In this document: one piece after another, positions 3,891 to 35,521 of the stretch
Layout of the letters: each line of letters opens with the position of its first letter
Position numbering within the stretch: position 1 is the first letter of the stretch
IMG/VR virus record: IMGVR_UViG_3300045988_098116
Location: 19,627-83,626 of that record
Reading direction: 5' to 3' (one strand)
DNA length: 64,000 nt
From: a virus
Position numbers and translations under genes: made by a program
The notes under the pieces: generated by a model
What the model saw: only the letters and a program-made list of their open reading frames with translations
Told to the model about the DNA's origin: nothing
Databases searched by the model: none

Positions 3891-4109
3891 ATGACAGTCC
3901 TTGAAGCGTGCGCCATGCTGGAGCTTGGCGACGGTATCAAACCCAATATTGAACTCACATTCGGCTCTTGCGGCGTTCCGTTCAACCCACAAAACGGCCT
4001 TGAGATGATGGCCTACGGCGATTTCCTCATCGAAACTTGCCACGTCTGGGAGGGCGGTGTCAACCTCGTCCTCAAGCAGCAGTTCTGCAAAAAGAACTGG
4101 AACGCATAA
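3891..4109 (+). CDS. hypothetical protein
   Basis: ATG 3891 preceded by AGGAGG; 72 aa. Confidence 0.45.
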   Translation: MTVLEACAMLELGDGIKPNIELTFGSCGVPFNPQNGLEMMAYGDFLIETCHVWEGGVNLVLKQQFCKKNWNA

Positions 4110-4121
4110 GGAGGGCACAGC

Positions 4122-4286
4122 ATGATCCCCTCCAACATCAATTTGGGCGATACCGTCACCCGCCGCATCGAGGCCACAGACCGCAAGGCCACCGGAACAG
4201 TCGTTTACATCCACCCGGAGGGCCGCTACTACACCGCCGAATTTGACCTCGGTCTCTACAAAATCCGCGAGTCCTTCAACACCTGA
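4122..4286 (+). CDS. small hypothetical protein (54 aa)
   Basis: ATG 4122 preceded by AAGGAGG; MIPSNINLGDTVTRRIEATDRKATGTVVYIHPEGRYYTAEF...; below the ORF-track length cutoff. Confidence 0.4.
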   Translation: MIPSNINLGDTVTRRIEATDRKATGTVVYIHPEGRYYTAEFDLGLYKIRESFNT

Positions 4287-4543
4287 AAATTCTTTCAAAA
4301 ACTTTCAGAAGTTCCCTTGACACGGGGCGCATACTTAAAATTGCCGAAGGGGAGACCCCTTCCCCGACGGCTTCGGTGTACCCCCCGAATTATATAAGCC
4401 CTTCCGTAAGAAAGGCTGCACCGGTCTTACATCCATTCTTCCGGTGTTCCCAGCGCAATTCTGGCAGGAACGCGGTCACGGGGGCGCAAGCCCCTCTGTC
4501 GCACGTCAGCTCGCCCACCAGGACGTAAACAAGGTGGGGGTCC

Positions 4544-4619
4544 GGTGTCGTAGCTCAGCTGGCAGAGCAGCTCATTCGTAATGAGCAGGTCGTGGGTCCG
4601 ATCCCCACCGATACCTCCA
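4544..4619 (+). tRNA. tRNA-Thr (anticodon CGT)
   Basis: Hand-folded cloverleaf. Acceptor GGTGTCG/CGATACC. D arm GCTC-AGCTGGCA-GAGC. Anticodon arm GCTCA-TTCGTAA-TGAGC. T arm GTGGG-TCCGATC-CCCAC (T-loop has C at position 55). Encoded CCA. Confidence 0.85.
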
Positions 4620-4793
4620 ATTCTACGTGGACACCGCGAGTGACGAGCGTATAGCGGAACAGCCGTATGGGTGATGCGAAGTCCTGAAGTAAGCCCCTCA
4701 AGCCTCGATGTTGTAATTGCGCCTGTGATCTGCTGGCAAAAGCGAGGCACGGAAAAGATCTGGCGGCTCGGAAAGACGAGCAACCCCCTCAAT

Positions 4794-4884
4794 GCAGATG
4801 TACCTCAGCCGTGGAAGAGGGTCTGATCGTAGCGTAAAGCGCGAGCTCGGAAAGTCGCAGGTTCGAATCCTGCCGTCTGCACCA
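4794..4884 (+). ncRNA. aberrant tRNA-like element (91 nt) with oversized anticodon arm
   Basis: Good acceptor (GCAGATG/CGTCTGC), D arm (CCTC/GAGG), canonical T arm (GCAGG-TTCGAAT-CCTGC) and CCA. But the anticodon stem TCTGA/TCGGA encloses 20 nt instead of 7. Confidence 0.4.
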
Positions 4885-5210
4885 TAGGCGTGACCTCTTG
4901 CCTCGCAGCCGCACGGAGCGTAAGCCTGCGGAAGTGGTCTTTCCTGTGCGCTGTACGAAAGCGGCAGGACGAAGTAATTTATGTATTGGCTGGCACCGGC
5001 TTTGTAAAGATGAACGGATGCGACCGACGTACCGGCGCAGGGCTGAAAAGTTCCGTGGTTGGTTCGGGTGCCGGCGTGTGCGGCGAAAATCCGAGGCGAT
5101 AACCTATAGATGTGGAAGCGGCGTGGTGGCGGCTGTCTTTGGACAAGGCCGCCGTGTAGGTCAGTAGCCATCCGCACCGGCACCCCGCCAACTGTGTCCC
5201 CGCAAAATTT

Positions 5211-5287
5211 GCAGCGTTAGTGTTCAACGGTCAGCACACCAGCCTTCCAAGCTGGGAGTGGCGGTTCGAATCCGCTACGCTGCTCCA
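5211..5287 (+). tRNA. tRNA-Gly (anticodon TCC)
   Basis: Acceptor GCAGCGT/ACGCTGC. Anticodon arm CCAGC-CTTCCAA-GCTGG. T arm GGCGG-TTCGAAT-CCGCT. Discriminator T, encoded CCA. Confidence 0.85.
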
Positions 5288-5457
5288 TGCCCGCCTGATG
5301 GATGACTTCCCCCGTCAGGAATGAAACCTCCGCATCTGGCAGCGGTGTCGCCGGGTCGAACCAGCCGGTAGCATGATTTGGGCGTGACAGCGAACGAAGG
5401 ACGCCCCACCCCATCGGGGAGGCGGGCATCCCCCAGCCCGTCCTCCCCACTCTCTAC

Positions 5458-5605
5458 GCAGGAGCGCCGTTGGGGCGCTTGCACGGCACACACAGAGATC
5501 TCCTTTCTGCTGCTGTTGTTCGGACACATCAACACCTCCAATGTTCATGTTCTATTTTCCGTGCGCCGGCAAGCCATGCGGGTTCGACTCCCGCCTCCTG
5601 CTCCA
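5458..5605 (+). ncRNA. 148-nt element with tRNA-type ends (perfect acceptor and T arm) but ~75 nt of extra internal sequence
   Basis: GCAGGAG...GCGGG-TTCGACT-CCCGC-CTCCTGC-T-CCA. 5' hairpin GCGCC-GTTGG-GGCGC. Interior does not fold as a standard anticodon or variable arm. Confidence 0.3.
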
Positions 5606-5778
5606 TCGGACGCGATAGGCGTCCGCGGTCCAGATAGGACCTCCTTTATAAATGCTGCGGCTGTAAGAAGCAGCACCGGGTTTTGTTCATTTTCCCCGGC
5701 TCCTGTTGGAATACAGGCAGGCCAAGCGATTTCTCCTTCCGGGCGGCGCGGTCTGGGCAGCCCGCCGCCCAACCCCCT

Positions 5779-5854
5779 GGGGGATTAGCTCAATCGGCAG
5801 AGCAGGCCGCTCATAACGGCCCGGTTCCGGGTTCAAGTCCCCGATCCCCCACCA
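5779..5854 (+). tRNA. tRNA with CAT anticodon (elongator Met or Ile2-type; G1-C72 argues against initiator)
   Basis: Acceptor GGGGGAT/ATCCCCC. D arm GCTC-AATCGGCA-GAGC. Anticodon arm GGCCG-CTCATAA-CGGCC. T arm CCGGG-TTCAAGT-CCCCG (one mismatch). Encoded CCA. Confidence 0.8.
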
Positions 5855-5912
5855 GCCGCAAGGCGATAAAACGTTTCAGTCTGAAATCTACAACAGAAAG
5901 GAGGCACATTCC

Positions 5913-6188
5913 ATGACCAAGAGCGAGTTTATTTCTACTCTGGCAGCAGCGACCGACATGAAGAAGTCCGACGTCGAGCGCGTGATCGCCGCCGCTGCCA
6001 ACACCCTTACCGGCGTCATGCGCTCCGGCGACAGCGTGAATATCTCCGGCTTCGGCATCTTCACCAGCAAAGTCCGCGACGCGCACCCCGGTAAGAACCC
6101 CGCTACCGGCGAGGCCATCACCGTCCCCGCTAAGCGCGTGGCCATCTTCAAGCCCGCAAAACAGCTCAAGGATGCCGTCAACAGCTGA
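5913..6188 (+). CDS. hup: HU/IHF-family histone-like DNA-binding protein
   Basis: 91 aa; GFGIFTSKVRDAHPGKNPATGEAITVPAKRVAIFKPAKQLKDAVN matches the HU beta-arm signature; RBS GAAAGGAGG. Confidence 0.9.
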   Translation: MTKSEFISTLAAATDMKKSDVERVIAAAANTLTGVMRSGDSVNISGFGIFTSKVRDAHPGKNPATGEAITVPAKRVAIFKPAKQLKDAVNS

Positions 6189-6228
6189 CGGCGCAGGGCC
6201 GTACCCACACAAAATATCCCACATTACG

Positions 6229-6263
6229 AGCCGGACGGCACACCGCCCTCCGGCTTGTTTTGT
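6229..6263 (+). terminator. rho-independent terminator after the HU gene
   Basis: AGCCGGA-13 nt-TCCGGCT followed by TGTTTTGT. Confidence 0.6.
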
Positions 6264-6269
6264 AAACTA

Positions 6270-6293
6270 TATTTCCGTTGCGTTTTGAATATT
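6270..6293 (+). repeat. 24-nt element TATTTCCGTTGCGTTTTGAATATT, identical copy at 29475-29498
   Basis: Exact 24/24 match read by eye; here it sits just upstream of TATAAT (6297-6302) and the cysteine desulfurase gene. Confidence 0.85.
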
Positions 6294-6333
6294 TCCTATA
6301 ATCCACACACAAACCACGAAAGGAGTAATTCCC

Positions 6334-19461: not shown

Positions 19462-19665
19462 TCAGCTGCGCTTACGCTTCTTCCTGTCCTCCGCCGCCGT
19501 CAGCGCGTCGCACTCCTCGTCCGTGGCCGCCCTGATCTTCCGTATATCCGGGTTTCCCTTGCGGTACTGGCTTTCACGGGTGATGTAGTACCGTCCCGTG
19601 ATGCCCGTTATCGGTATTTCTCTGCCGCTTTTCATCACCAGGATGTGCCGTGTCTTTTTCGCCAT
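19462..19665 (-). CDS. hypothetical protein
   Basis: 67-aa ORF from internal ATG (MAKKTRHILVMKSG...). Confidence 0.4.
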   Translation of the reverse strand: MAKKTRHILVMKSGREIPITGITGRYYITRESQYRKGNPDIRKIRAATDEECDALTAAEDRKKRKRS

Positions 19666-35310: not shown

Positions 35311-35386
35311 TGGCGGAAACGGCAGGGTTTGAACCTGCGCCCCTCTGATTAACAGTCAGATGCTCTGCCAACTGAGCTACATTTCC
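35311..35386 (-). tRNA. tRNA-Asn (anticodon GTT)
   Basis: Reverse complement folds as GGAAATG-TA-GCTC..GAGC-A-TCTGA-CTGTTAA-TCAGA-GGGGC-GCAGG-TTCAAAC-CCTGC-CGTTTCC-G-CCA. Confidence 0.85.
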
Positions 35387-35446
35387 GTATGGGGCTTGCG
35401 CCCCCATAAACTCCCTTTCGGGCGAAAACGATCCAACGTTTTCATC

Positions 35447-35521
35447 TGGCACGGACGCGAGGACTCGAACCTTGAACTGCGGTTTTGGAGACCGCCGTTT
35501 TCCCGGTTAAACTAAATCCGC
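35447..35521 (-). tRNA. tRNA-Trp (anticodon CCA), weak acceptor stem
   Basis: Anticodon arm GCGGT-CTCCAAA-ACCGC. D arm GTTT/AAAC. T arm CAAGG-TTCGAGT-CCTCG (one mismatch). Acceptor GCGGATT/CGTCCGT has 4 WC pairs, 2 GU pairs and 1 mismatch. Confidence 0.65.

Follow-up and report, generated by a model that had tools for sequence, protein, structure and literature searches.

GOLLD and ROOL are large, intricate phage and prophage RNAs found beside transfer RNA (tRNA) genes, at tRNA islands, and after 15 years their function is still unknown. GOLLD is typically longer than 800 nucleotides (nt) and its linker can carry tRNAs; ROOL is about 581 nt long. Small stable RNAs are also made from the tRNA region of phage T4, where RNAC and RNAD (species 1 and 2), whose roles are likewise unknown, are co-processed with the tRNAs. 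In other systems tRNAs act as punctuation, as in mitochondrial polycistronic transcripts, MALAT1-mascRNA and the 3' external transcribed spacer (3'ETS)-leuZ of Escherichia coli; the tRNA folds serve as signals for RNase P and RNase Z, and the spacer RNAs released can be functional. Here we analyze a non-coding tract at positions 4287-5912 of a 64,000-nt stretch of viral DNA (IMG/VR record IMGVR_UViG_3300045988_098116, positions 19,627 to 83,626; hereafter the window), in which tRNAs and tRNA-like modules are each followed by a folded RNA. Three of these RNAs, A, B and C, belong to families that are conserved and covary, and the fourth, D, is likewise conserved, within a narrower clade; Rfam contains none of the four.

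The tract extends from the stop codon at 4286 to the start of an HU gene at 5913. Its units are, in order, a leader, tRNA-Thr, RNA C, tRNA-like module 1, RNA A, tRNA-Gly, RNA B, tRNA-like module 2, RNA D and tRNA-Met, followed by the HU gene (Table 1). With the two tRNA-like modules taken as boundaries, the five spacers measure 257, 174, 326, 170 and 173 nt, and the intervals from tRNA-Thr to tRNA-Gly and from tRNA-Gly to tRNA-Met are 591 and 491 nt. An earlier note on this DNA, prepared without database searches, had given exactly these coordinates, lengths and intervals, and ARAGORN identifies the same three canonical tRNAs. All seven helices listed in that note are found where it placed them; the helix at 5128-5153 covaries in family A, and the long-range helix 5288-5295/5421-5428 is kept in the subgroup of family B to which the window belongs. 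The note's statement that the tract has no credible open reading frame (ORF) is borne out as well. None of the five longest tract ORFs matches a Pfam family, and substitutions among 61 homologues of 4890-5195 show no 3-nt periodicity (0.237/0.243/0.202). A long antisense open frame is present in 40 of these 61 homologues; its phase varies (30/17/14), the segment lengths are mixed modulo 3, and the frame is a side effect of base composition. With no codon periodicity, no consistent frame phase and no Pfam match, coding of protein was rejected, and for family A it is excluded.

The evidence for structure in the tract is covariation across homologues and not folding energy. Chains of GC-rich hairpins, which the earlier note had emphasized, are indeed present. 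Their density in the first kilobase (4290-5289) is not beyond chance for a GC-rich sequence, however (z = -1.33 relative to shuffled sequences); the segment 5288-5778 does stand out (z = -3.48). Folding energy was dropped as proof of structure because RNA A is no more stable than its shuffles (values are given below).

Loci containing family A, the 326-nt spacer, were collected from IMG/VR by means of the exact 21-mer at 5034-5054, which is present in at least 118 contigs; among the matches listed there are 96 unique sequences, which form 60 clusters below 95% identity. The homologues measure 287-336 nt. Covariation was sought by a stacked-helix search, and a curated structure of 58 pairs was tested on a plain MAFFT alignment (A3) that had not been fitted to structure. 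Paired cells amount to 84.1%, compared with 76.4% in shuffles (0/500 as high), 32 pairs have changes on both sides (0/500), and covariation is 0.240 compared with 0.122; displacing the partners by 1-3 columns lowers the pairing to 35-47% of the cells. Among the cells G-U occurs 293 times and A-C 73 times, an excess of four to one that identifies the functional strand of family A as plus-strand RNA. The kissing-loop pseudoknot is especially well supported, with 98.7% of its cells pairing and changes on both sides in all five of its pairs, as in the variants GUACG/CGUAC, GUAUG/CAUAC and GUGCA/UGCAC. The long-range helix P8 is misaligned by MAFFT and was therefore tested without an alignment, sequence by sequence. 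The best helix there averages 10.6 base pairs (bp), compared with 7.4 bp in shuffles, and at the same offsets it takes 38 different sequences, of which at least 10 are unrelated.

The center of RNA A is a three-way junction that is almost invariant over some 45 nt, unpaired bases included. The flanks of the junction, AACGGATGCGACC and GTGG, are invariant although they were not part of the search pattern, and the exact 21-mer is kept in 17 of 19 full-length A copies taken from loci that had been found through families B or C. The nearest relatives among GenBank phages are two unannotated faecal virome scaffolds, MT835520, which is 97% identical, and MT835513, which is 90% identical and only over 4854-5058; no cultured relative or host was found in the GenBank phage collection. 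An nhmmer profile of family A finds one copy in the window (4850-5204), which excludes a paralogue of A in the other window spacers, and two copies in contigs from cellular genomes (L152, an Oscillospiraceae metagenome-assembled genome, and L214). These two are the only real matches of a cellular-genome scan with the pattern GCTGGNNCCGGC-N(8-30)-ACGGATGCGA, which is loose and matches GC-rich genomes almost entirely by chance, and the host range is thus poorly sampled. Two resemblances to known RNAs were considered and rejected. A T-box-like pairing of RNA A with the discriminator-CCA of its upstream tRNA was sought by eye; the candidate for it, UGGN, shows no covariation with the discriminator. 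The likeness of GCUGGCUCCGGCUUA and GAAAAGUUCC to the CR-V and CR-I regions of RNase P RNA fails because their order is wrong, the P4 pairing is imperfect and there is no match to an Rfam RNase P model.

At 71 of 99 unique family-A loci (L002:3338-3436, L036, L152, L067, L108 and others) the unit next to RNA A on its 3' side is a conserved segment of about 120 nt that is absent from the window. It occurs as two subtypes, both of which end ..GUAGCCAAGGGGYGGGGGCUGGURRCAAA, and then come a ribosome-binding site (RBS) and a variable ORF. This segment is possibly a fifth module or an element of a 5' untranslated region.

Family B was spotted when the whole tract was compared by BLAST with the family-A loci, as a second conserved block directly after tRNA-Gly. 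In 24 sequences its paired cells amount to 86.3%, compared with 78.3% in shuffles (0/500), and its covariation is 0.249 compared with 0.116 (0/500); slid controls pair at 33-51%. The invariant core AUGAAACCUCC (5322-5333), part of which lies within helix Bb, contains ACCUCC, identical to the anti-Shine-Dalgarno end of 16S ribosomal RNA. For family C a degenerate pattern with 16 specified bases gave many chance matches, and a blastn filter was applied; blastn matches were obtained in 53 loci, with about 50 substantial homologues and identities down to 74-77%. On a MAFFT alignment of 19 sequences, the same alignment from which its structure was derived, 93.3% of cells pair, compared with 78.5% in shuffles (0/500), double changes occur in 16 of 30 pairs (0/500), the covariation score is 0.408 compared with 0.153, and slid controls pair at 32-42%. 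The search for covarying base pairs in homologous intergenic regions, which the earlier note had proposed as a test, is thus positive for A, B and C, and the note's broader suggestion of an undescribed structured RNA in place of plain tRNA spacers is supported.

A terminal hairpin, GCYSGGAAAGASSRGC (GCYSG-GAAAGA-CSRGC), is found at the 3' ends of family C and of one subtype of family B, two unrelated families, a few nucleotides upstream of the next tRNA-like unit (12 nt in the window). Its stem varies in a compensatory fashion (GCUCG/CGAGC, GCCGG/CCGGC, GCCUG/CAGGC and GCUUG/CAAGC). This shared hairpin may be an element for protection or processing of the 3' end.

Each of the two intervals between the canonical tRNAs contains, just as the earlier note had described, one aberrant tRNA-like module; the two lie at 4794-4884 and at 5458-5605. 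Module 1 is matched by the Rfam tRNA model over 4794-4881 with 47.5 bits, compared with a gathering cut-off of 29, and has a 19-nt insert in the anticodon loop. Its minimum free energy (MFE) structure is a cloverleaf in which the anticodon arm is replaced by a 30-nt irregular hairpin with a 5-nt loop. It is not called by ARAGORN and, without a 7-nt anticodon loop on a 5-bp stem, does not qualify as a decoding tRNA. In module 2 the likeness to a tRNA is confined to the acceptor stem of 7 bp, the T arm, which is normal, and the encoded CCA with U as discriminator; neither ARAGORN nor Rfam calls it. It is found only in relatives of 95-100% identity, and MT835520 lacks it.

Module 1 belongs to a superfamily of 75 distinct GCAGAYG...CGUCUGC-R-CCA modules of 63-116 nt, which share the acceptor stem and have very different bodies; further examples are L002:2950-3031, L064:7251-7320, L064:7478-7540 and one in L088. 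Only 21 of the 75 are called as tRNAs by ARAGORN, often with odd anticodons. A hairpin of at least 4 bp abuts the 3' strand of the acceptor, in the position of the T arm, in 59 of them: in 38 it has a 7-nt loop like that of a T arm, and in the other 21 a 4-nt loop caps a stem of 7 bp. The pattern of degeneracy is therefore plain in these sequences, with D and anticodon regions that degenerate freely and an acceptor stem that is kept. RNase P and tRNA 3'-end nucleases require no more of a substrate than the minihelix of acceptor stem and T arm. GCAG is also the start of the canonical tRNA-Gly(UCC) and of tRNA-like module 2 in the window, a hint that tRNA-Gly genes gave rise to the mimics.

The boundaries between units follow a regular grammar, a tRNA or tRNA mimic and then a folded RNA. 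All 72 unique copies of family B begin directly after ..CCA. In family A the start follows CCA at about 97 of 99 unique loci and CAA at a few (a regular-expression count corrected by eye against the alignment), and in family C it follows CCA at nearly all of the approximately 50 loci, the exceptions being three very divergent matches and one 37-nt match to the 3' hairpin only. The unit that precedes A varies: tRNA-Trp, Met, Gly(UCC), Gly(CCC), Thr and Ser all occur there, as do units that ARAGORN cannot call; the first nucleotide of the modules also differs between and within families (U, G, C or A). Other phages combine the same ingredients in other orders; their arrays measure 1.6 to about 3 kb, and the modules also occur separately and in some cases kilobases apart. 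B and C are usually internal to the arrays. No homologous phage was found in which short ordinary spacers take the place of the array. In MT835520 (our locus L001), however, family C carries a net insertion of about 78 nt (window 4722-4765), with some 20 nt of C also replaced, and a deletion considered below removes parts of the array. Comparison of this scaffold with the window makes it evident that modules are gained and lost as blocks.

We compared the window with all 4227 families of Rfam 15 by cmscan, using the gathering score for the whole window and E ≤ 10 with lax filters for 4100-6300. At the gathering score only tRNAs were detected in the window, and the same was true of twelve diverse homologous loci (142 kb). 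GOLLD, ROOL, HEARO, RNase P, group I introns and self-cleaving ribozymes gave no match in 4100-6300 at E ≤ 10. Transfer-messenger RNA (tmRNA) was not called by ARAGORN, and the sole related line in the cmscan output is a permuted tmRNA on a T arm (12.8 bits, E = 8.7). A group I intron or known ribozyme was rejected both for want of an Rfam match at E ≤ 10 and because the upstream tRNAs are complete with CCA. The earlier note's proposal of a GOLLD- or ROOL-like RNA, and its mention of HEARO and tmRNA, are accordingly not supported by any cmscan match at the gathering score or at E ≤ 10. Nor is the tract one or two large RNAs, as the note had put it; it consists of four modules and a leader, which are independent and reordered in other phages.

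GOLLD resembles the tract in its phage or prophage location at tRNA islands, in sometimes having tRNAs inside its transcript and in its multi-helix fold, but it is a single RNA of more than 800 nt, whereas the modules here are 170-326 nt and separated by tRNAs or mimics, and family A lacks the GOLLD type of layout with a conserved 3' and a variable 5' domain. ROOL occurs in gut or rumen phages, lies near tRNAs, has a pseudoknotted multi-junction fold and has no associated protein, as is the case for the tract. Family A differs from it in having no covariance-model match, in its length of 287-336 nt, in its one supported pseudoknot (the kissing loop) and in its far more numerous invariant nucleotides. 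T4 RNAC and RNAD are, like the RNAs expected here, small stable products of a phage tRNA region; they belong to the lineage of T4 and E. coli, however, so that no relationship in sequence would be expected, and are two RNAs, not a set of families shuffled among many phages. In the known tRNA-punctuation systems processing has been demonstrated experimentally, whereas for the tract it is inferred. The literature that we searched contains no equivalent tRNA-array or tRNA-like phage RNA and no printed core sequences of these families. A catalogue of 10,006 viral candidate structured RNAs, with motifs of up to 151 nt, may list fragments of A-D (PMC10690425). As far as the literature searched goes, families A-D are new, occupy the niche of GOLLD, ROOL and T4 RNAC/RNAD, and have a punctuated architecture so far undescribed.

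The reading that we consider probable is a polycistronic operon of non-coding RNAs in an uncultivated human-gut phage, with tRNAs and their mimics serving as punctuation that releases stable, trans-acting RNAs. One early transcript would span the leader through tRNA-Met, as suggested by the location of the tract on the same strand as the early genes, the lack of any internal sigma-70 promoter call and the presence of only one weak terminator-like site (5627-5641). Host RNase P would then cut at the 5' end of each tRNA or mimic, and an assumed tRNA 3'-end nuclease would cut after each encoded CCA, which would yield mature tRNAs and, beside them, discrete RNAs with stable folds. The hairpin that precedes the next unit would cap the 3' end in family C and in one B subtype. 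The released RNAs, above all the RNA A of about 320 nt, would act in trans during infection by binding a conserved partner of the host or the phage. Release of discrete RNAs at the tRNA boundaries, which defines an operon punctuated in this way, is suggested by the conservation of those boundaries. In a more elaborate version the spacer RNAs would be phage effector RNAs with a dedicated processing system, whose degenerate tRNA minihelices evolved for cleavage alone. RNA A would be a ribozyme, for instance one that generates the CCA end of the tRNA by cleavage at its own 5' end, or an RNA of the ROOL/GOLLD kind that assembles with itself and sequesters a target, and the mimics, which lack an anticodon, could also be decoys for host defence nucleases directed at tRNAs; this we regard as speculative and rather unlikely.

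Several observations weigh against a punctuated operon. Transcription, cleavage, stability and function are all predicted, and the enzyme that would cut after CCA is itself an assumption. In 71 of 99 unique A loci, what follows A is not a tRNA but a conserved segment, an RBS and a gene; the 3' end of A at those loci is thus not made by RNase P. RNA A (4885-5210) folds no better than shuffled sequences, with z = +0.15 on the plus strand and -0.23 on the minus strand. In MT835520 a 215-nt deletion (window 5419-5633) has removed the 3' end of B, all of tRNA-like module 2 and the start of D, including the first hairpin of D and part of the second, with the result that B is fused to D; modules are therefore individually dispensable. 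The evidence is also uneven among the families. In B, the number of pairs changed on both sides (8) does not exceed that in shuffles (8.3), and the support for this family is moderate; the structure of C was tested on the alignment that had yielded it; and for D the compensatory changes, at 74-84% identity (CUGUU/AAUACAG as compared with CUGCU/AAUGCAG), were noted by eye.

Dispensability is also what would be expected if the folded spacers acted only in cis, assisting the folding, processing and nuclease resistance of the neighboring tRNAs before being degraded. The strict adjacency of the modules to tRNA 3' ends, their reshuffling and the lack of a consistently linked partner protein gene, apart from loose synteny with HU, fit such a role, and although we think it unlikely, it deserves some weight. 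It is difficult, however, to see how tRNA-specific folding help could come from a module that follows many different tRNAs, and both the invariant core of about 45 nt and the covarying kissing loop of A exceed the needs of a processing spacer. In addition, A is often the last unit of an array, with no tRNA after it, and the other tRNA pair of the window, at 35311-35521, makes do with a short, unrelated spacer of 60 nt. The uniform start of the modules could alternatively be explained by self-cleaving ribozymes that cut at their own 5' ends, which would create the CCA end of the tRNA with no need for a host 3' nuclease. The start after CCA is indeed common to A, B and C, which are unrelated families, and to D in the window's clade, and RNA A resembles ribozymes in its near-invariant, pseudoknotted core. 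This explanation seems improbable to us, because no Rfam self-cleaving ribozyme matches at E ≤ 10, because the first nucleotide differs between and within families, and because three or four independent inventions are less parsimonious than one host nuclease that recognizes tRNA. A 2',3'-cyclic phosphate left on A76 would, moreover, block aminoacylation.

The punctuated operon also has to be compared with explanations in which no RNA is released to act on its own. Regulation in cis of the downstream protein genes, HU in the case of the window, would account for the 71 of 99 loci in which A leads through a conserved segment to an RBS and an ORF, and for the HU homologue found downstream in 28 of 122. 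Yet the genes downstream vary from locus to locus, B and C mostly occupy internal positions in arrays, and in the window two tRNAs, a tRNA-like unit and two other modules intervene between A and HU, so that we give this only a small chance. The chance is smaller still for a DNA-level element (an attP site over the 3' ends of tRNAs, an origin of replication or a site for packaging) or an unrecognized protein gene. Phage attachment sites often overlap tRNA 3' ends, the tract adjoins HU and early/replication genes, and the antisense open frames are long in the 40 homologues noted above; these points are offset by compensatory changes and by a fourfold tolerance of G-U over A-C, which argue for a single-stranded RNA from the plus strand, as well as by the lack of codon periodicity, of a consistent frame phase and of a Pfam match. 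The explanation with the least in its favor is a divergent GOLLD or ROOL, in which the tract would form one or two ornate RNAs of very large size and the tRNAs would be embedded in them. It would share the niche, phage tRNA islands, and the GOLLD linker can hold tRNAs; but there is no covariance-model match in the window (E ≤ 10) or in 142 kb of homologous loci (gathering score), the modules are 170-330 nt and not about 581 nt (ROOL) or more than 800 nt (GOLLD), and in other phages they are separate, reordered and kilobases apart.

The tRNA-island niche of gut phages thus holds at least four further RNA families of approximately 170-330 nt, each present in about 30 to more than 118 contigs. 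If the punctuation model is true, it provides a simple, testable rule for where these RNAs start and end, and would explain the many tRNA-like genes in phage tRNA arrays that cannot be called. It would also supply smaller, conserved and tractable RNAs, with a 45-nt junction and a kissing loop, for structural and functional work on the RNAs of tRNA islands.

Table 1. Features of the tract and of the adjoining HU gene, in window coordinates.
Feature	Position	Strand	Basis or remark
5' leader of array	4287-4543	+	no ORF; TTGACA motif 4317-4322; hairpins 4346-4362 and 4481-4494 (GCAA loop)
tRNA-Thr(CGU)	4544-4619	+	ARAGORN; Rfam tRNA model 61.8 bits; CCA encoded
Family C structured RNA	4620-4793	+	covariation; blastn homologues
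Family C helix	4624-4627/4664-4667	+	
Family C helix	4634-4637/4654-4657	+	
Family C helix	4669-4672/4693-4696	+	
Family C helix	4702-4706/4744-4748	+	
Family C helix	4721-4726/4732-4737	+	
Family C 3' hairpin	4766-4770/4777-4781	+	GCUCG-GAAAGA-CGAGC; 12 nt before tRNA-like module 1
tRNA-like module 1	4794-4884	+	GCAGAUG...CGUCUGC-A-CCA; 7-bp acceptor stem, D arm, T arm; Rfam tRNA 47.5 bits
Family A structured RNA	4885-5210	+	about 290-335 nt in homologues; covariation
Family A P2	4903-4907/4925-4929	+	
Family A P3	4942-4947/4964-4969	+	
Family A P3b	4949-4952/4960-4963	+	
Family A kissing-loop pseudoknot	loop 4953-4957 (GUACG) with loop 5028-5032 (CGUAC)	+	all 5 pairs covary
Family A P4	4988-4992/4997-5001	+	
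Family A three-way junction core	5014-5056	+	near-invariant; P7 has GAAA loop
Junction P5	5014-5018/5052-5056	+	
Junction P6	5019-5022/5036-5039 plus 5024-5026/5033-5035	+	
Junction P7	5042-5044/5049-5051	+	GAAA cap
Family A long-range helix P8	5067-5075 (GGGUGCCGG) with 5177-5185 (CCGGCACCC)	+	encloses 3' domain
Family A P9	5128-5133/5148-5153	+	covarying
tRNA-Gly(UCC)	5211-5287	+	ARAGORN; Rfam tRNA 42.1 bits; CCA encoded
Family B structured RNA	5288-5457	+	pattern ATGAAACCTCCNNNTCTGGCAG in 93 IMG/VR stretches (complete scan)
Family B closing helix	5288-5295/5421-5428	+	window subgroup only: L244, L296, L052; one mismatch in L291
Family B Ba	5294-5301/5312-5319	+	
Family B Bb	5328-5333/5342-5347	+	
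Family B Bc	5350-5354/5365-5369	+	
Family B Bd	5380-5385/5401-5406	+	
tRNA-like module 2	5458-5605	+	GCAGGAG...CUCCUGC-U-CCA; T arm GCGGG-UUCGACU-CCCGC; branched insert of about 95 nt; MFE z = -3.08
Family D structured RNA (spacer 5)	5606-5778	+	pattern in 28 IMG/VR stretches; MFE fold
Family D hairpin	5607-5613/5619-5625	+	
Family D hairpin	5627-5631/5637-5641	+	
Family D hairpin	5653-5658/5670-5675	+	
Family D hairpin	5676-5680/5695-5699	+	
Family D hairpin	5702-5706/5713-5717	+	
Family D hairpin	5741-5748/5763-5770	+	
tRNA-Met(CAU)	5779-5854	+	ARAGORN; Rfam tRNA 59 bits; CCA encoded
HU-family DNA-binding protein gene	5913-6188	+	PHROG 379, E = 9e-25; directly 3' of array

Upstream of the tract lie two small ORFs and the genes for a repressor-like protein and an anti-repressor, and downstream of it the genes for HU and an HNH endonuclease, all of them on the plus strand. 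A U is found at position -1 in four of six tRNA or tRNA-like units. The HU homologues in the 28 family-A loci mentioned above are on the same strand as A, and some of these proteins are only 35-43% identical. The location of HU downstream of the array of non-coding RNAs and tRNAs may reflect a conserved order of the early operon or a functional link; binding to structured RNAs is a known property of HU.

Homologues of the leader are found mostly in relatives of 95-99% identity. Three partial homologues with 80-88% identity (L351, L301 and L277) retain the TTGACA motif, together with TATAAGC..GCTGCRCCGG..CCGGTGT..GCAATTC around a variable hairpin. The first part of the leader (4300-4335), in the window as in these three, carries a conserved AAAAACTTT...TTGACACGGGRCG motif with a perfect -35-like hexamer. 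No -10 element is present at the canonical spacing from this hexamer and no sigma-70 promoter was called; the motif may be an operator or a non-standard promoter.

A second pair of tRNA genes in the window, Trp(CCA) and Asn(GUU), lies at 35311-35521 on the minus strand, between a capsid-like gene and the next ORF. The spacer of this pair is of the ordinary kind and unrelated to those of the array, and families A-D are absent there. Hairpins with GNRA caps are found near both tRNAs, GGGGCGAAAGCCCC upstream of tRNA-Trp and GGGGCGCAAGCCCC just upstream of tRNA-Asn; the latter recurs at 4481-4494, upstream of tRNA-Thr.

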